A DNA stretch of 64,000 nucleotides from Clostridia bacterium (GCA_017463485.1 JAFTPD010000002.1:65229-129228), one strand, 5' to 3'. Counted from the stretch's first letter, positions 48,420-56,401 are shown. A program made the numbers and translations. Notes: generated from the sequence alone by a model not told the origin.

Positions 48420-48541
48420 AATGTTTTCCTTTCTTTGGGGTGTGATTTGTGCCTGTGTACGACGCCATTATAAACTTTAACGTAAGGTCAAAGTCAAGGG
48501 CTTCTATAAAAATTTTTGAAAAAATTCAATTTTGTACGCAA

Positions 48542-48564
48542 GGCGGCTGTGTCACACAGCCGCC
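48542..48564 (-). terminator. PEPCK terminator hairpin
   Basis: GGCGGCTGTG-tca-CACAGCCGCC downstream of the stop at 48591. Confidence 0.5.
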
Positions 48565-48590
48565 AAAGCTGTAGCTCAATTATTTGTCAG

Positions 48591-50396
48591 TTATTTTGCT
48601 GCGTTAAGTCTTGCTTCAAGAGCTGCAAGCTCGTCGTACATAGCGGCAGGAACTCTGCTGCCAACCTGAGCGTAGAACTCCTTGATATTTGCAACGTCCT
48701 CAAGCCATGCGTCAACGTCAACGGACAGAAGACCGCGAATGGTATCGAGAGTAACGTCACTAAGACCGTCAATGCAGATATCCTCAGCCTTCGGTACGTA
48801 ACCGATAGGAGTGATGTCCGCGTCAACCTTACCCTCGCAGCGAGCAAGGATCCACATAAGAACGCGCATGTTGTCGCCGAATCCGGGCCAGATGAAGTTG
48901 CCGTTCTCGTCGGTGCGGAACCAGTTAACGTGGAAGATCTTCGGAGGATTGGGAATACGAGTACCCATAGTAAGCCAGTGAGCCCAGTAGTCGCCCATAT
49001 CGTAGCCTACGAAGGGACGCATAGCCATGGGGTCGCGGCGAACTACGCCGACAGCACCCGCAGCAGCGGCAGTGGTCTCGGAAGCCATGATAGAGCCGAC
49101 GAATGCTCCGTTCTGCCAGCTTGTGGACTGGTAAACCAGAGGAGCGGTCTTAGCACGGCGGCCGCCGAATACGATAGCGGAAACGGGAACGCCTGCGGGA
49201 TTAAAGAATTCCTTAGAAAGGCAAGGGCAGTTTTCAGCCATAGCGGTAAAGCGGGAGTTGGGATGCGCGCCGCAGGTGGACTTATCCTTCTTGTCGTACT
49301 TGGTGCAGTCCCAAGGATTGCCCTTCCAGTCGATAGCGTTGCCGGGTGTGGGAGGATTGTTGTCAAGACCTTCCCACCAAACGGTGTTATCGGCAGTGTT
49401 GTGAACTACGTTGGTGAAGATGGTATCCTTCATTGTAGTGTAGAGAGCGTTGGGGTTGGACTTGAGGTTAGTACCGGGAGCAACTCCAAAGAAGCCGTTC
49501 TCGGGGTTAACAGCCCAGAGTCTTCCGTCCTCGCCGACACGCAGCCAAGCGATATCGTCACCTACGCAGAATACCTTGTAGCCCTGCTTGGAATAGTACT
49601 CGGGCGGGATAAGCATTGCAAGGTTGGTCTTTCCGCAAGCGGAGGGGAATGCAGCAGTAACGTACTTTGTTTCACCGTCGGGGTACTGAACGCCGAGAAT
49701 GAGCATGTGCTCAGCCATCCAGCCCTCCTTACGTCCGAGGTAGGAAGCAATACGGAGAGCGAAGCACTTCTTACCGAGCAGTACGTTTCCGCCGTAACCG
49801 GAGTTAACGGACCAGATGGTGTTTTCCTCGGGGAAGTGAACGATATATCTGTTCTCCTCGTCAAGCTGTGCGCGAGCGTGCAGGCCCTTGATGTAGTCTG
49901 CGCTGTCGCCGAGAGCTTCAAGCACGTTTGTGCCGACGCGGGTCATGATAAGCATGTTGAGAACAACGTAGATGGAGTCGGTCAGCTCAATACCGTATTT
50001 TGCAAAAGGAGAGCCAACGATACTCATGGAGTAGGGAATGACGTACATGGTCTGTCCCTTCATAGACCCTGCATACAGCTTGGTAAGCTTAGCCTTGCAC
50101 TCAGCGGGATCCATCCAGTTATTGATGTTACCTGCATCTTCCTTCTTGGAGGTACAGATAAAGGTTCTGCCTTCAACGCGGGCAACGTCGTTTACCGCGG
50201 TTCTGTGGAGGTAGCATCCGGGGAGCTTCTCCTGATTGAGCTTGATCATTTCGCCTGTAGCGCAAGCCTCGGCTCTCAGCTCTTCTGCTTGCTCCTTGGA
50301 GCCGTCGATCCATACGATCTTGTCGGGCTGAGTAAGAGCAGCCATGTCCTTGATCCAATCAAGAACGTGTTTGTTGGAGGTGGGTGTGTTGTTCAT
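48591..50396 (-). CDS. pck: phosphoenolpyruvate carboxykinase (GTP)
   Basis: FPSACGKTNLAML kinase-1a motif of GTP-PEPCK, about 600 aa. Start at MNNTPTS after AAGGAGA. Confidence 0.9.
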   Translation of the reverse strand: MNNTPTSNKHVLDWIKDMAALTQPDKIVWIDGSKEQAEELRAEACATGEMIKLNQEKLPGCYLHRTAVNDVARVEGRTFICTSKKEDAGNINNWMDPAECKAKLTKLYAGSMKGQTMYVIPYSMSIVGSPFAKYGIELTDSIYVVLNMLIMTRVGTNVLEALGDSADYIKGLHARAQLDEENRYIVHFPEENTIWSVNSGYGGNVLLGKKCFALRIASYLGRKEGWMAEHMLILGVQYPDGETKYVTAAFPSACGKTNLAMLIPPEYYSKQGYKVFCVGDDIAWLRVGEDGRLWAVNPENGFFGVAPGTNLKSNPNALYTTMKDTIFTNVVHNTADNTVWWEGLDNNPPTPGNAIDWKGNPWDCTKYDKKDKSTCGAHPNSRFTAMAENCPCLSKEFFNPAGVPVSAIVFGGRRAKTAPLVYQSTSWQNGAFVGSIMASETTAAAAGAVGVVRRDPMAMRPFVGYDMGDYWAHWLTMGTRIPNPPKIFHVNWFRTDENGNFIWPGFGDNMRVLMWILARCEGKVDADITPIGYVPKAEDICIDGLSDVTLDTIRGLLSVDVDAWLEDVANIKEFYAQVGSRVPAAMYDELAALEARLNAAK

Positions 50397-50665
50397 GGGT
50401 TTCTCCTTATTTGATATTATTTTTTGACTTATTGATGTCGGAGTCGGAGGAAAAGTCACAACAGTGCTGTCAATCCTACTCCACCATATATTTTACAGCA
50501 TTTTTTGCAAATTTGCAATAGTTATTTTTAAAGGTTACGAATTGTTAACATACTGCACAAATTCAAGTCAATAAGTTTGTTGAAATTTTTTGCCGAGTTT
50601 TAAGAAAAAAGTCATAAAAGTATGGTACAATGTAGAGGTAACGAAATTTGACGCTTGGAGTTAAC

Positions 50666-51358
50666 ATGAATATAAAAGGAATACAAAAGCTGACGCTGCT
50701 TGACTATCCTGGGCGGGTGGCTTGCACGCTGTTTACGGGAGGCTGCAATTTCCGTTGCCCCTTCTGCCATAACTCAATGCTGGTCATTGATCCCGAAAAA
50801 AATCTTTCTCACGATATCGGCGAGATCATGTCCTATCTTGAGCGTCGCCGCGGAGTGCTGGACGGCGTGGCTATCACGGGCGGTGAGCCATTGCTACAAC
50901 CCGATATCGCCGACTTTATCCGCGATATACGCGCTCTCGGTTATCCCGTCAAGCTGGATACCAACGGCTCGCGTCCCCGCGTGCTGTCCGAGCTTATCCA
51001 AGGTGGGCTTGTGGATTACGTCGCAATGGATATCAAGAACAGTCGCGAAAAGTACGGTGTCACTGTCGGAATACCCGATTACGATACCTCGGCGGTAGAA
51101 GAAAGCGCGCGCCTTCTTATGCAGGGCGACGTGGAATTCGAGTTCCGCACGACCGTTACCCGACAGCTTCACGAGGCGGATGATTTCGTGAAAATAGGGG
51201 AGTGGCTGTGCGGGGACGAGCGGTTCTACCTGCAACAGTTTAAGGATTCGGGCAGCCTGATCGATTCGGCGGTCAGCGGATGGGACGACGAAACGCTTAG
51301 AAGCTTTGGCGAGATACTCAAAAAGTATATACCGCACACCGACATTCGCGGAATTTAA
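50666..51358 (+). CDS. nrdG: anaerobic ribonucleoside-triphosphate reductase activating protein (radical SAM)
   Basis: GGCNFRCPFCHN radical-SAM cluster motif. Start at MNIKGIQK after TTGGAG. Confidence 0.88.
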   Translation: MNIKGIQKLTLLDYPGRVACTLFTGGCNFRCPFCHNSMLVIDPEKNLSHDIGEIMSYLERRRGVLDGVAITGGEPLLQPDIADFIRDIRALGYPVKLDTNGSRPRVLSELIQGGLVDYVAMDIKNSREKYGVTVGIPDYDTSAVEESARLLMQGDVEFEFRTTVTRQLHEADDFVKIGEWLCGDERFYLQQFKDSGSLIDSAVSGWDDETLRSFGEILKKYIPHTDIRGI

Positions 51359-51399
51359 TATTTTCGGCACTGTATCGCATGGAAACTATTTCCAACAAA

Positions 51400-51485
51400 C
51401 CACAAGATATAGTGCCAATTTTTTTAAAAAATATACAATATCTTGTGAAAAAGGTATTGACAAATTCCAAGATATAGTTTATACT
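51400..51485 (+). promoter_or_regulatory. three NrdR boxes plus the nrdD promoter
   Basis: CACAAGATATAGTG (51401-51414), TACAATATCTTGTG (51434-51447), TCCAAGATATAGTT (51466-51479); centres are 33 and 32 bp apart. TTGACA (51457-51462), 17 nt, TATACT (51480-51485). Box 3 overlaps the promoter. Confidence 0.7.
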
Positions 51486-51587
51486 ATATTCACTGCCATT
51501 TTCGCAGACGACAAATTTCGCGCCCTTTCGGGGGTGCATTTTTGGACTCCGCAGGCTAATATATTATTAATTATGAAAGGAAAAGAT

Positions 51588-53984
51588 ATGTATCAGGTAC
51601 TCAAAAGGGACGGCAAAACAGTCGAATTCGACATTTCAAAAATTTCAAACGCTATTCGCAATGCGTTTGAGGCTCAGAGCAAGCAGTATCACCCGGGCGT
51701 TATCGATTTTCTCGCGCTGAAGGTCACTGCTGACTTCGAGCCCAAGATCAAGGACGGACTTGTTTCCGTCGAGGACATTCAGGACAGCGTTGAGTCGGTG
51801 CTGGTGCAGGCAGGCTATGCTGATATCGCAAAGGCGTACATTCTCTACCGTAAATCGAGAGAGAAGATCCGTAACATGAAGTCCACCATCCTTGATTATA
51901 AGGATGTAGTTGATAAATACGTTAAGGAGACCGACTGGCGCGTAAAGGAGAACTCCACCGTTACCTACTCGGTAGGCGGACTTATTCTGTCCAACTCGGG
52001 TGCTATCACGGCTAACTATTGGCTCTCCGAGATCTACGACGAGGAGGTAGCCGAAGCGCACAGAAATTCGGATATGCATATCCACGACCTCTCCATGCTT
52101 ACGGGCTATTGCGCAGGCTGGTCGCTCCGTCAGCTTATTAAGGAAGGACTCGGCGGCGTAAGAGGTAAGATCACCTCCGCACCCGCAAGCCATCTGTCAA
52201 GCCTTTGCAATCAGATGGTAAACTTCCTCGGCATCATGCAGAACGAATGGGCAGGTGCGCAGGCGTTCTCGTCCTTTGATACATATCTCGCTCCCTTTGT
52301 AAAAATAGATAATCTTGACTACGAGCAGGTAAAGAAGTGCATTGAATCCTTCATCTACGGCGTAAATACGCCCTCCCGTTGGGGAACTCAGGCACCCTTC
52401 TCAAACGTAACTCTCGACTGGGTAGTTCCTAATGATATGGCAGAGCTTAACTGCATTATCGGCGGTAAAGAGGTTGACTTCAAGTATAAGGACTGCCAGC
52501 GTGAAATGGATATGGTCAATAAGGCGTTCCTTGAGATCATGATCGAGGGCGACGCTAATGGACGCGGCTTCCAGTATCCTATTCCTACCTATTCCATTAC
52601 CCGCGATTTCGATTGGTCGGATACAGAAAATAACCGACTTTTGTTCGAGATGACCGCGAAATACGGTACACCTTATTTCTCTAACTATATCAACAGCGAT
52701 ATGGAGCCCTCCGACGTGCGCTCCATGTGCTGCCGTCTCCGCCTTGACCTCCGTGAGCTTCGCAAGAAGTCGGGTGGCTTCTTCGGCTCGGGTGAGTCCA
52801 CAGGCTCTGTCGGCGTAGTTACCATCAATATGCCTCGTATCGCTTACCTTGCAGACAGCAAGGAGGACTTCTACAAGCGCCTTAACAGAATGATGGACCT
52901 CGCAGCTCGCTCGCTCAAGACAAAGAGAACGGTTATCACCCGCCTGCTCAACGAGGGACTGTATCCTTACACAAAGAGATACCTCGGCACGTTTGAAAAC
53001 CATTTCTCTACAATAGGTCTTGTAGGTATGAACGAGGTTGGACTCAATGCAAAGTGGCTGCGCGCTGATATGACTCACCGTGAAACTCAGGAGTTCACCA
53101 AGGAAGTCCTCAACCACATGCGCGAAAGACTTTCCGACTATCAGGAAATGTACGGCGACCTGTATAACCTTGAGGCAACTCCCGCAGAGTCTACCGCATA
53201 CCGTCTTGCAAAGCACGACGTAAAGAGATTCGGCGATATCATCACCGCATCCGATAAGGGACATACTCCTTACTACACAAACAGCTCTCATCTGCCCGTA
53301 GGATATACCGACGATATCTTCTCCGCGCTTGACGTTCAGGACGAGCTTCAAACGCTTTATACCTCTGGAACTGTATTCCACGGCTTCCTTGGCGAAAAGC
53401 TGCCCACATGGCAGTCCGCGGCATCTCTCGTCCGTAAGATCGCCGAGAACTATAAGCTGCCTTACTACACACTCTCTCCCACGTACAGCGTATGTAAGAA
53501 CCACGGTTACCTGTCGGGCGAGACCTACGTTTGCCCGCACTGTGGCGAGAACACCGAGGTTTACAGCCGTATCACGGGTTATTACCGTCCCGTACAGAAC
53601 TGGAACGACGGTAAGTCGCAGGAGTTCAAGGAGAGAAGAGTATATAATATTGAACGCTCCATGGAGCTTCATCCCAACCTCACCGTAGGTGGATGCGGAT
53701 GCGAAACTGTTGACTTTGAGCCTGTTGCCGATACGGCAGAGGAAGCAAAGGTAATACTTTTTGCAACCAAGACCTGCCCTAACTGTAAGATGGCAACTGT
53801 TTTCCTTGATAAGGGCGGCGTCCAGTACGAAAAGGTATACGCAGAGGAAAATCCCGATCTCGTGCGCAAGTACGGAATCATGCAAGCCCCCACTCTCGTC
53901 GTAGTAGGTGAGGACGGAAATGCCGACGTTATCACCAACGTTTCCAATATCAGAAAATACGTTGATTCTCTTGCAACGGTCTGA
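51588..53984 (+). CDS. nrdD: class III (anaerobic) ribonucleotide reductase NrdD with fused C-terminal thioredoxin-fold (CPNC) domain
   Basis: ATP-cone N-terminus (MYQVLKRDGKTVEFD), zinc ribbon (CKNHG..CPHCG), glycyl-radical motif SRITGYYRP. An extra ~95 aa follows: KVILFATKTCPNCKMA...APTLVVV. The listed ORF start at 51306 is upstream of the promoter and RBS. Confidence 0.88.
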   Translation: MYQVLKRDGKTVEFDISKISNAIRNAFEAQSKQYHPGVIDFLALKVTADFEPKIKDGLVSVEDIQDSVESVLVQAGYADIAKAYILYRKSREKIRNMKSTILDYKDVVDKYVKETDWRVKENSTVTYSVGGLILSNSGAITANYWLSEIYDEEVAEAHRNSDMHIHDLSMLTGYCAGWSLRQLIKEGLGGVRGKITSAPASHLSSLCNQMVNFLGIMQNEWAGAQAFSSFDTYLAPFVKIDNLDYEQVKKCIESFIYGVNTPSRWGTQAPFSNVTLDWVVPNDMAELNCIIGGKEVDFKYKDCQREMDMVNKAFLEIMIEGDANGRGFQYPIPTYSITRDFDWSDTENNRLLFEMTAKYGTPYFSNYINSDMEPSDVRSMCCRLRLDLRELRKKSGGFFGSGESTGSVGVVTINMPRIAYLADSKEDFYKRLNRMMDLAARSLKTKRTVITRLLNEGLYPYTKRYLGTFENHFSTIGLVGMNEVGLNAKWLRADMTHRETQEFTKEVLNHMRERLSDYQEMYGDLYNLEATPAESTAYRLAKHDVKRFGDIITASDKGHTPYYTNSSHLPVGYTDDIFSALDVQDELQTLYTSGTVFHGFLGEKLPTWQSAASLVRKIAENYKLPYYTLSPTYSVCKNHGYLSGETYVCPHCGENTEVYSRITGYYRPVQNWNDGKSQEFKERRVYNIERSMELHPNLTVGGCGCETVDFEPVADTAEEAKVILFATKTCPNCKMATVFLDKGGVQYEKVYAEENPDLVRKYGIMQAPTLVVVGEDGNADVITNVSNIRKYVDSLATV

Positions 53985-53999
53985 TAGCTCGGAGGCGGT

Positions 54000-54905
54000 A
54001 TGTACGATATAGTTATAATCGGCGCAGGACCTGCGGGACTTACGGCAGCGCTCTACGCTCGCAGAGCCGAGAAAAGTGTCTTGGTGCTTGAAAGGGAAAC
54101 TTTCGGCGGACAGATAACACATTCTCCAAAGGTAGAGAATTATCCCGGTATCGCGCAGATGAGCGGTAACGAGTTTGCGGATAAGCTGGTCGAGCAGGTT
54201 ATCAGTCACGGTGCTGATATCGAGCTTGACGAGGCGCTGGCTGTCGTTAAGGACGGCGACGTGTTGACTGTGGAGGGCAAGGAGGGAACTTATCTCTGCC
54301 GCTCCGTCATTATCGCAACGGGCTCGCGACACAGACCTCTCGGCGTTGAATACGAGGATAATTACGTAGGTAACGGAATTTCCTATTGCGCAGTATGCGA
54401 CGGCGCTTTCTATGCAGGCAAGTCGGTAGCCGTGGTTGGCGGCGGAAACACCGCACTGCAGGAGGCTGTAATGCTCTCGGATATATGCGAAAAGGTGTAT
54501 ATCGTGCAGAATCTTCCGCATCTGACGGGAGAGTCAAGACTGTACGAAATTCTCCGTAAGCGCAATAACGTGGAGATAATCTGCAACCACCTCGTGGATA
54601 AGATCGCAGGTGAGGGAAGCGTTGATGGCATTATCATTAAGGATGCCGAGAGCGGTACGCGCACACGCCTTGATGTGGATGGAATTTTCGTGGCTATCGG
54701 TCAGATTCCCGAAAACGAAGCGTTTGCAAACGTAGCCGAGCTTACCGAGCGCGGATATATCGACGCAGGCGAGGATTGCCTTACTAAAACGCCCGGCGTG
54801 TTCGTGGCAGGCGATTGCCGTTCCAAAACCATTCGTCAGATCACAACAGCATGCGGCGACGGCGCAGTTGCGGCAACCGCGGCTTGCAGATTTCTTGAAT
54901 CGTAA
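54000..54905 (+). CDS. thioredoxin reductase homolog lacking the NADPH-binding arginine motif
   Basis: GAGPAG FAD motif and CAVC redox centre. GGGNTALQEA is present, but HRRDxFRA is replaced by VQNLPHLTG. Confidence 0.8.
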   Translation: MYDIVIIGAGPAGLTAALYARRAEKSVLVLERETFGGQITHSPKVENYPGIAQMSGNEFADKLVEQVISHGADIELDEALAVVKDGDVLTVEGKEGTYLCRSVIIATGSRHRPLGVEYEDNYVGNGISYCAVCDGAFYAGKSVAVVGGGNTALQEAVMLSDICEKVYIVQNLPHLTGESRLYEILRKRNNVEIICNHLVDKIAGEGSVDGIIIKDAESGTRTRLDVDGIFVAIGQIPENEAFANVAELTERGYIDAGEDCLTKTPGVFVAGDCRSKTIRQITTACGDGAVAATAACRFLES

Positions 54906-55018: not shown

Positions 55019-55342
55019 GTTTACTTGTAACAAAGAGATGAGCAAAAATTTTAATTTGACTCAGCCCCTTTGCAAAATTTTAAAGTTTTTATTGCTTGGT
55101 TACTTCTGTCGATACAGAAGTAACATGAAAAATAATTACAATATTTGTTTTACTTTCTGCTTACACGATAACAGACACATAAATAATCAAATTTTTTAAA
55201 AAAGTCGAAAAAAACTATTGACAAGGGAAGATTTGTATGTTATAATAATTTGCCGCTTAAAAAGGGCTTTTTTAAGTGCGTCAAAAATCTTGTGTTTTTG
55301 CGCCGCCCCGTTAGCGAGTCTTAAAGAAACGAGGTGCTTTTC

Positions 55343-55651
55343 ATGTTTGCTGTAATTACTACAGGCGGAAAGCAGTACAAGGTCATTGAGCAGGACATCA
55401 TCTATGTCGAGAAGCTGAATGTTGAAGAGGGCGCAGAGGTTACGTTTGACGTTGTTGCGCTGTCCACCGACGCAGGCTTCAAGGCAGGAACCCCCACAGT
55501 TGCCGGTGCAAAGGTTACCGGTAAGGTGCTTCTCAACGGTAAGGGCAAGAAGGTCTACGTTATGAAGTACAAGTCCAAGAAGAACGAAAAGAAGAAGATG
55601 GGCCACAGACAGCCCTTCACCAAGGTACAGATCACCGCTATCGAGGGCTGA
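55343..55651 (+). CDS. rplU: 50S ribosomal protein L21
   Basis: MFAVITTGGKQYKV. ATG follows GAGGTG. Confidence 0.93.
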   Translation: MFAVITTGGKQYKVIEQDIIYVEKLNVEEGAEVTFDVVALSTDAGFKAGTPTVAGAKVTGKVLLNGKGKKVYVMKYKSKKNEKKKMGHRQPFTKVQITAIEG

Positions 55652-55678
55652 TAAGCTCTATCGGTAAAGGATTCTGTT

Positions 55679-56041
55679 ATGACAAGGATCACTTTTTTTC
55701 GAAGCGACGGAATTTTCTACGGGTTTGAGGAAAAGGGACATACGGGATACGGCGAGGAGGGCGGCGACGTTCTTTGTGCGGCGATCTCAGCTATGACTAT
55801 GTTTCTCATAAATACCGTCGAGGTCGCCTATGCATCTCGCATTGAGTATGAGATAGACGACAACACAACAACGGTGCGAGTCAAGTGCAAATCGGCACTC
55901 CCCGAATTTGAGGAGGACGATATGAAGCGCTACGCCGTGTCGGGAATCTTTCTGGGATATTACCAGCAGCTTACCGATATGCTCGAGGAGTATGAGGATT
56001 ATCTCGACGTCAAGGTCGTAAACCGCGACTACGACGAATAA
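55679..56041 (+). CDS. prp: ribosomal-processing cysteine protease Prp
   Basis: GHTGYGEEGGDVLCAAISA dyad motif. Conserved position between rplU and rpmA. Confidence 0.88.
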   Translation: MTRITFFRSDGIFYGFEEKGHTGYGEEGGDVLCAAISAMTMFLINTVEVAYASRIEYEIDDNTTTVRVKCKSALPEFEEDDMKRYAVSGIFLGYYQQLTDMLEEYEDYLDVKVVNRDYDE

Positions 56042-56119
56042 TTCGCACAAATTCCGCCAAAGACGCCCGACAAAGCGGGCAACTCAAAAATTCAAAACGG
56101 ATAATTTGGAGGTAGAAAG

Positions 56120-56401
56120 ATGTTAAAGCTCAGTTTGCAGTTTTTTGCTCACAAAAAGGGTGTAGGTTCTACTAAGAACGGCCGTGACAGCGAGTCCAAG
56201 CGTTTGGGCGTTAAGAAGGCTGACGGTCAGGCAGTAGTAGCCGGCAACATTATCGTACGTCAGAGAGGAACGGCTATCCGCCCCGGCAACAACGTTGGCA
56301 TGGGTAAGGATCACACTCTGTTCGCTCTTATCGACGGTAAGGTAAAGTTTGAGCATGCAACGAGAACACAGAAGAGAGTAAGCGTTTACGCTGCTGAGTA
56401 A
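56120..56401 (+). CDS. rpmA: 50S ribosomal protein L27 (with Prp-cleaved N-terminal extension)
   Basis: [32 protein letters not shown]. The nine-residue propeptide is typical of Firmicutes. Confidence 0.93.

Follow-up and report, generated by a model that had tools for sequence, protein, structure and literature searches.

The 64,000-nucleotide stretch of DNA analysed here, from a Clostridia bacterium (GCA_017463485.1 JAFTPD010000002.1:65229-129228; the window, from whose first letter positions are counted), carries three genes on its + strand across 50648-54905: nrdG, an nrdD that is fused to a thioredoxin (Trx)-fold domain, and a homolog of thioredoxin reductase (TR). We describe the architecture of this locus, its motifs, the predicted fold of the fused domain and the synteny that is conserved among its relatives, and we argue, with somewhat better than even confidence, that it encodes a class III ribonucleotide reductase (RNR) that carries its own disulfide reductant, together with a dedicated reductase for that reductant. 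An initial annotation of the sequence had proposed a self-contained electron chain, encoded as one transcription unit, that runs from ferredoxin through the TR-like protein and the tethered domain to the active-site cysteines of NrdD. The middle of that chain is upheld by the evidence below and its beginning is not.

Results

Architecture of the NrdD fusion

The fusion gene (51588-53984, +, 798 aa) is defined by its translation and by Pfam and NCBIfam matches, and starts at an ATG at 51588 with a good ribosome-binding site, AAAGGAAAAG, ahead of it. Its product opens with an ATP-cone, the allosteric on/off domain (51594-51863, residues 3-92; Pfam PF03477, E = 5e-23), and continues with the catalytic barrel and glycyl-radical domain of a class III RNR (51948-53645, residues 121-686; Pfam NRDD, E = 1.7e-186), the NRDD model PF13597 being matched over its full length (1-562/562). 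The Zn-ribbon cysteines of NrdD are present as CKNH...CPHC, and the glycyl-radical motif SRITGYYRP, with Gly664 at 53577-53579, is followed by a further 134 residues. As the NCBIfam model NF006126 ('ribonucleoside triphosphate reductase', 1130 bits against a cut-off of 548) reaches residues 1-688 only, the tail beyond is an add-on to the enzyme.

This tail consists of a linker that is predicted to be disordered (53646-53747, residues 687-720) and a minimal Trx-fold domain (53748-53981, residues 721-798). When residues 690-798 are modelled with AlphaFold2 from an alignment of 51 tails, about 30 residues with a predicted local distance difference test score (pLDDT) below 52 give way to a domain at pLDDT 90-96. 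Its predicted topology, beta-alpha-beta-alpha-beta-beta-alpha, matches the minimal Trx fold that glutaredoxins and NrdH share, with the redox motif Cys730-Pro-Asn-Cys733 (53775-53786) between beta1 and alpha1 and the cis-Pro region APTL before beta3; across the 51 aligned tails neither C-P-N-C nor A-P-T-L varies. Foldseek against the PDB returns thioredoxins as the best matches (E about 1e-4, TM about 0.6), including C. acetobutylicum thioredoxin and D. vulgaris desulfothioredoxin, and Pfam assigns residues 722-774 to Glutaredoxin (27.1 bits; cut-off 22.9), with Thioredoxin and Thioredoxin_3 slightly under their cut-offs and a combined Glutaredoxin/Thioredoxin match region of about 713-783. 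The CPNC Trx-fold domain that the initial annotation had recognised on NrdD is thus borne out by profile, predicted fold and conservation alike. The strings from which it had been read, KVILFATKTCPNCK...APTLVVV and KTCPNCK, are in the NrdD translation, and all the others that had been quoted (SRITGYYRP, GGCGCE, GAGPAG, CAVC and VQNLPHLTG) lie where they were said to lie. No named redoxin subfamily was matched, the NCBIfam models for NrdH (CVQC), Grx (CPYC), Trx (WCGPC) and YruB giving 16-23 bits against cut-offs of 66-185, and because none of these comes near its cut-off we regard the tail as a type of its own among Trx-fold redoxins.

When a representative library was searched with the tail, the matches were mainly proteins of 75-140 aa, several of them named ribonucleoside-triphosphate reductase, and many are likely to be C-terminal NrdD fragments from short contigs. 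Loci in which nrdD appears 'split' from a free-standing Grx-like gene were considered as Rosetta-stone support and dropped, since two of the three cases are artefacts: the splits in L081 and L082 are due to frameshifts or runs of N, and in L084 (5974-6003) an in-frame TAA interrupts the linker and an open reading frame (ORF) that starts with GTG comes after it, which could be a real split or an error.

The linker contains a further pair of cysteines, Cys703-Gly-Cys705 (53694-53702, within GGCGCE in the translation). Among 78 relatives the linkers range from 21 to 62 residues and are rich in Ala, Glu, Lys and Ser with an unconserved sequence, and cysteine makes up 3.4% of their residues as against 1.5% in the core. 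At least two cysteines occur in 33 of the 78, and in all 33 there are cysteines within four residues of one another, as CC, CxC or CxxC, a count that is inflated by the relatedness of the sequences. GGCGCE was rejected as a conserved motif; only the vicinal pair recurs, in 42% of linkers. By analogy with the C-terminal tails of class I/II RNRs, in which a Cys pair of variable spacing sits on a flexible extension (PMC9669993), Cys703/Cys705 may be a shuttle. The likeness extends to the linker pairs of those 42% of relatives, but unlike the pairs of the class I/II tails, the one here is flanked by the glycyl-radical domain on one side and a folded redoxin on the other, and most family members do without it.

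Distribution of the fusion

The initial annotation had considered a reductant domain fused to NrdD to be unusual, yet the fusion is widespread in gut and rumen anaerobes. All 120 database homologs listed (79-95% identity) have the same architecture, most of them with a precomputed Grx or Trx Pfam hit, and all are 790-810 aa long except for one gene call of 950 aa. This last, a near-identical NrdD on a metagenome contig, probably has an over-extended start; a TTG-started ORF of 892 aa, from 51306, likewise reads through nrdD in the window. With residues 625-798 as the query, a scan that took one genome for each GTDB species gave at least 600 candidates, of which at least 590 were confirmed as relatives. 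The redoxin domain was checked in the best 80 of these (L001-L080), one search pattern falling in the NrdD core, and 80/80 align through it. The fusion is therefore present in at least 80 species-level genomes, which span two phyla and several orders (Oscillospirales, Christensenellales, Lentisphaeria, Bacilli), the hosts including Oscillospiraceae, Acutalibacteraceae, Christensenellales, Saccharofermentans, a Tyzzerella metagenome-assembled genome (MAG), 'Bacilli' MAGs and several Lentisphaeria/Victivallales MAGs, as well as a cultured species, Pseudoflavonifractor phocaeensis (L020). The closest of the 80 loci is that of the MAG Oscillospiraceae bacterium SIG628 (L001), with 92.8% DNA identity over 48469-54893.

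The neighbourhood is conserved along with the fusion. By tblastn, 70 of the 80 loci have a TR homolog, which in 67 lies within 600 nt 3' of the fused nrdD, and in most of the related loci nrdG sits 5' of nrdD. In the 2.5-kb flanks of the 67 operons no other conserved neighbour was seen beyond nrdG, nrdD and the TR gene, nor did a ferredoxin (CxxCxxCxxxCP or 2x[4Fe-4S] motif) recur there. The fusion has one earlier appearance in print, as a row for Glutaredoxin:NrdD of Lachnospiraceae bacterium TWA4 (WP_082039398.1), left unstudied, in a table of Rozman Grinberg et al., 2018 (PMC6187632). No other mention of an NrdD-redoxin fusion turned up in the literature found, and the survey of RNR extensions by Burnim et al. 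(PMC9669993) is silent on it.

Active-site class of NrdD

Despite a low overall similarity (136 bits), the window NrdD can be aligned with T. maritima NrdD (4COI), an enzyme that depends on a protein factor and not on formate (PMC4493059). Tyr174-Cys175 on beta-A (52107-52112) fall on Tyr124-Cys125, the finger loop Met380-Cys381-Cys382-Arg383 (52725-52736) falls on the SCCR motif, and Glu529 (53172-53174, in YNLEATPAE) falls on Glu495. According to Burnim et al. (2022, PMC9669993), thioredoxin-type reduction is associated with a double-Cys finger loop plus the Glu, and the formate/thiosulfuranyl mechanism with a Met in the loop. By these residues the window NrdD is of the MCCR class, with the beta-A Cys, the finger-loop CC and the active-site Glu of the thioredoxin type plus the formate-type Met380; it is not of the SCCR, or 'thioredoxin only', kind, in which the Met is absent. 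The comparison with thioredoxin-type enzymes that the initial annotation had called for accordingly comes out in its favour for Cys175, Cys381-Cys382 and Glu529, and reveals in Met380 a residue that it had overlooked. MCCR is the motif of 83% of double-cysteine class III RNRs, which thereby have residues for both formate and thioredoxin chemistry, and the Met-containing finger-loop sequences appear to be ancestral (PMC9669993); no report of an assay of any MCCR-motif enzyme was encountered in the literature found. Cys175, the whole MCCR loop with Met380, Glu529 and the glycyl motif are invariant in the 78 relatives.

The invariance of Met380 opens the way to an alternative in which formate stays the catalytic reductant, by a thiosulfuranyl route through Met380/Cys175, and the Trx-fold domain and TR keep the cysteines of the enzyme reduced after an oxidative insult or form a redox switch. 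This would agree with the view that MCCR enzymes are equipped for either reductant and that sequences with the Met seem to be the ancestral ones (PMC9669993), as well as with the existence of some loci that have no dedicated TR. Yet the second finger-loop Cys is invariant too, as is Glu529, for which an essential role in reduction without formate has been proposed, and repair has no obvious need of a domain tethered 1:1 and of a co-transcribed, surface-specialised reductase that is conserved across phyla. The only fused RNR redoxin to have been tested, moreover, is a catalytic reductant (PMC6187632). We regard this alternative, under which the cysteines being guarded would be the active-site Cys, the finger-loop Cys-Cys and those of the Zn-ribbon, as improbable.

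The downstream reductase

The nrdD stop codon (53982-53984) is separated by 15 nt from the ATG, at 54000 and preceded by GGAGG, of the gene for the low-Mr TR homolog (54000-54905, +, 301 aa). Its product matches Pfam Pyr_redox_2 over the full length (E = 1e-48) and TIGR01292, thioredoxin-disulfide reductase, at 325 bits, slightly below the cut-off of 343, and its best PDB matches are the TRs of B. cereus (7AAW, 236 bits) and T. africanus (7JYP, 234 bits). Of the motifs of NADPH-dependent TRs it has GxGxxG, as the FAD motif GAGPAG (residues 8-13), the redox CxxC, as CAVC (residues 130-133, 54387-54398), and GGGxxA, as the pyrophosphate motif GGGNTA (in GGGNTALQEA; residues 147-152, 54438-54455). 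Two others are replaced: G(R/K)G before the CxxC, which is part of the Trx-docking surface (PMC5627308), by G-N-G (residues 124-126, 54369-54377), and HRRDxFR by QNLPHLT (residues 170-176, 54507-54527). VQNLPHLT aligns with IHRRDGFR in TrxB of E. coli and with IVHRRDTLR in 7AAW; the E. coli sequence, which also served as the outgroup, gives orientation only, and the HRR alignment was obtained independently from PDB 7AAW and 4GCM. Both the TrxR homolog 15 nt 3' of nrdD and its VQNLPHLTG in place of HRRDxFRA are as the initial annotation had described them.

What the loss of HRR implies is the point at which we part from that annotation. The same thiol relay could be served by a ferredoxin- (or flavodoxin-) dependent TR, such that dNTP synthesis would run on low-potential electrons from fermentation in place of pyridine nucleotides. 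Reduced ferredoxin is as a rule plentiful in strict anaerobes such as the hosts, and Methanosarcina reportedly offers a precedent in a class III RNR driven by ferredoxin via an NrdH and an enzyme like ferredoxin:thioredoxin reductase (FTR). In work attributed to Wei et al. in 2015, the NrdD3 operon of Methanosarcina barkeri is said to encode its own small redoxin, NrdH, and its own ferredoxin:disulfide reductase, much as the operon here encodes both; there, reportedly, an FTR-like Fe-S enzyme takes the place of the flavoenzyme as reductase, the redoxin stands as a protein of its own, and the loop is QCCR without the Glu. The 2'-phosphate motif HRRxxxR is indeed missing from the window TR, as it is from all non-NADPH TRs (PMC5627308), and by the operational rule of PMC10880999 clostridial TrxBs without NAD(P)H motifs are 'probably FFTR', that is, ferredoxin-dependent flavin thioredoxin reductases.

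The FFTRs do resemble the window TR in having the low-Mr TR fold, FAD and a CxxC, in being without HRRxxxR and in occurring in anaerobes, but they lack GxGxxA as well (PMC10880999), are shorter (288-294 aa) or have a C-terminal aromatic tail, and are distant from it (117-148 bits). The FFTR structures 6GNA-6GND score 117-125 bits, as against 234-236 bits for the T. africanus and B. cereus TRs, and 6GNA, 6GNC and 6GND rank 45th-47th. Membership of the window TR among the FFTRs was rejected on this ranking and on motif content, only HRRxxxR being lost and GGGNTA kept. The pyrophosphate motif GGGxxAxE is retained in NAD(P)H users and degenerate in TRs that work without pyridine nucleotides (PMC5627308); as GGGNTA is kept in the window TR and its whole clade, the loss of HRR need not mean ferredoxin. 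The absence of a recurring ferredoxin gene near the 67 operons and the canonical HRRDxFR of 11 orthologous operons, discussed below, also speak against ferredoxin, as does a close parallel in the Thermotogae. A ferredoxin-dependent TR therefore seems to us unlikely, if less so than formate as the catalytic reductant.

In T. africanus TR (7JYP), VQNLPYLT stands exactly where the window TR has VQNLPHLT. A search with the 7JYP sequence found further Thermotogae TRs, with QNLP in Kosmotoga and Fervidobacterium and IQLLETLT in Thermotoga spp., and the Thermotoga cluster holds AAD35951.1, the T. maritima TR, which is 41% identical to the window TR. Like the low-Mr TRs of Thermotogae (AAD35951.1, 7JYP), the window TR keeps GGGxxA and has Q-x-L-x-x-L-T for HRRDxFR. 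In PMC5627308, AAD35951.1 is listed as an 'NADH-TR', a preference for NADH being cited to Yang & Ma 2010. The partner of the T. maritima enzyme is a Grx-like protein. Since GGGxxA is intact, the three arginines that bind the 2'-phosphate are lost and the motif is of the type found in this NADH-preferring enzyme, NADH is probably the donor of the window TR as well. Thermotogae TRs differ from it in retaining the G(K/R)G docking motif, where the window TR has GNG, and in being housekeeping enzymes that are unlinked to nrdD.

The motifs were surveyed in 68 full-length NrdD-linked TRs, the window's included, which fall into a single clade in a neighbour-joining (NJ) tree. The QNL flavour, to which the window TR belongs, accounts for 51 of them and reads GGGN(S/T)ALQ ... 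(V/I)Q(N/D)LxxxTGE, with GGGN(S/T)ALQ conserved in all; a single variant of it, LQDMPVFTG, occurs at L045. Eleven have the canonical HRRDxFR and are basal in the tree; these are at L019, L020, L040, L057, L064, L065, L069, L079 and L080, next to nrdD, and at L030 and L037, distal to it, with P. phocaeensis (L020) among them. The remaining five (L018, L026, L054, L058, L077) combine G-D-(G/A)-N-T-A with (L/W)FDKFF, the former recalling the GEG form in the NAD(P)H-independent DvTRi, and by their motifs may be independent of NAD(P)H; a PDB query with a TR of this FDKFF flavour ranks ordinary TRs first. At the docking position, 49 of the 68 have GNG (27) or GEG (22), where every reference TR examined, those of Thermotogae included, has K/R. 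Such a substitution fits a reductase that would be specialised for an atypical redoxin. In the tree, which is a crude one, the NrdD-linked and Thermotogae TRs form separate clades, each with HRR-type relatives.

The activase gene and flanking sequence

The radical-SAM activase of the class III RNR is encoded beside nrdD, by nrdG (50648-51358, +; TIGR02495 NrdG2, 214 bits against a cut-off of 131, with Pfam Radical_SAM and Fer4_12). Its ORF opens at a TTG at 50648, the ATG at 50666 being the probable start. That the cluster has nrdG as its third conserved gene, and that an activase requires a one-electron donor, might suggest that the redoxin and TR serve NrdG, supplying electrons for reduction of its [4Fe-4S] cluster or for installation of the glycyl radical. 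Dithiol/disulfide carriers, however, move two electrons at a potential too high for reduction of [4Fe-4S]2+/1+, the redoxin domain is joined to NrdD and not to NrdG, and the idea is without known precedent; we consider it very improbable.

The 230-nt spacer between nrdG and nrdD holds a candidate regulatory region for nrdD (51400-51485, +). A pattern search found two palindromes 33 nt apart, at 51400-51415 (CCACAAGATATAGTGC) and 51433-51448 (ATACAATATCTTGTGA), which resemble the known NrdR-box consensus and are candidate NrdR sites; the pattern shows no enrichment over the whole window. They adjoin a near-consensus promoter-like site, TTGACA-17-TATACT, at 51457-51485 (11/12 hexamer matches in a consensus scan). 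Within the nrdD leader, a GC hairpin followed by a T-run at 51520-51546 could be an attenuator. As nrdG is placed separately upstream, and nrdD has a promoter-like site and NrdR-box-like palindromes of its own, the transcription unit most securely comprises only nrdD and the TR gene, between which no terminator-like site was seen.

The next promoter-like site, a perfect sigma-70-like one (55218-55246, 12/12 hexamer matches), lies ahead of the rplU - Prp-like - rpmA genes at 55334-56401. Of riboswitches and other RNAs, the search of the region yielded no more than an L21 leader that stays below threshold (RF00559, 28.7 bits; gathering score 36), within 55218-55331 and likewise ahead of rplU. 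Two long ORFs run antisense to genes here, one of 632 aa (48516-50414, +) opposite a PEP carboxykinase-like gene whose identity was judged by eye from the sequence, and one of 706 aa (52401-54521, -) opposite nrdD. Both are of low complexity, rich in Cys and Arg and without coding evidence, and are probably artefacts of codon bias.

Discussion

We consider a dedicated thiol relay in the nrdD-TR unit to be well founded because of the Trx-fold tail, the thiol-type residues of the core and the TR gene directly 3' in 67 of 80 loci; the individual steps of electron transfer and the electron donor are what we infer from these features. Ribonucleotide reduction would oxidise Cys175 on beta-A and one of Cys381/Cys382 in the finger loop, with Glu529 as the proton donor, and the resulting disulfide would be re-reduced by the CPNC Trx-fold domain, borne on its flexible linker of ~34 residues, with Cys703-x-Cys705 perhaps as an intermediate shuttle. 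The downstream TR would in turn re-reduce the Trx-fold domain, via FAD and then the CAVC dithiol, drawing most likely on NADH as its primary donor, reduced ferredoxin or flavodoxin being possible in its place.

Each part of such a relay has a counterpart in a known system. The thioredoxin-dependent NrdD2 enzymes (sensu Wei et al., 2014) of Neisseria bacilliformis and T. maritima have the same beta-A Cys, double-Cys loop and active-site Glu, and in T. maritima the TR of the organism is without HRR, as here. They differ in their SCCR loop, where the window has MCCR and so keeps the formate-type Met, and only the window has a redoxin covalently attached at the C-terminus together with a co-transcribed, dedicated TR. 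A functional precedent for the fusion itself is the Grx::NrdB of the Facklamia ignava class I RNR, in which a small CxxC redoxin is likewise fused to an RNR subunit and the fused Grx domain has been shown to serve as its reductant (PMC6187632). There the fusion is N-terminal and to an aerobic enzyme's radical-generating subunit, and the redoxin is of the CPYC type, glutathione-linked and without a dedicated reductase gene, whereas in the window the fusion is C-terminal and to the catalytic glycyl-radical subunit, and the redoxin is CPNC and paired with a TR.

Several points weigh against the relay or parts of it. No biochemical study of any member of the fused-NrdD family was found in the literature, and the invariance of Met380, the thiosulfuranyl-radical partner in formate-type enzymes, makes formate use possible. 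About 13 of the 80 loci have no adjacent TR, and a dedicated reductase must therefore be dispensable in some lineages, while the Cys pair is missing from 58% of linkers and is therefore not an obligatory shuttle. As for the donor, the QNL motif may, judging from the separate clades, be convergent between the NrdD-linked and Thermotogae TRs, which would weaken the transfer of an NADH preference from the latter. The window TR also has a Pro in QNLP at the position of a Glu in Thermotoga (QLLE) and of an Asp in 22 of 51 relatives (QNLD), and a cofactor preference for the T. africanus TR was not found in the literature searched.

A more ambitious version of the relay is one that we entertain only tentatively. 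It would make the enzyme a self-sufficient class III RNR whose C-terminus works like those of class I/II, with electrons passing from a dedicated flavin reductase, specialised for NrdD and forming a distinct QNL specificity class with a re-modelled docking surface, to the tethered Trx fold and on to the active site, partly by way of the linker Cys pair.

The system is put together from familiar elements, namely NrdD of the thioredoxin type, fusions of a redoxin with an RNR, and TRs without HRR. If there is no more to it than meets the eye, it is a tidy and unsurprising Rosetta-stone fusion of known parts. Its main value is that the fused operon lends itself readily to testing which reductant MCCR-type class III RNRs use. 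A large MCCR family with a self-fused redoxin and a private reductase argues strongly, on genomic grounds, for thiol-based turnover, and makes a convenient experimental system as well, with three adjacent genes, a reductant tethered 1:1 and at least one cultured host in P. phocaeensis. The three flavours of reductase (HRR, QNL and FDKFF) behind one type of operon amount to a natural experiment in donor switching for the synthesis of DNA precursors in gut anaerobes. Should the self-sufficient, class I/II-like reading prove true, it would mean that MCCR NrdDs, the majority of double-cysteine class III RNRs, are thiol-dependent in vivo, and that a C-terminal Cys-pair shuttle has evolved in glycyl-radical RNRs too.

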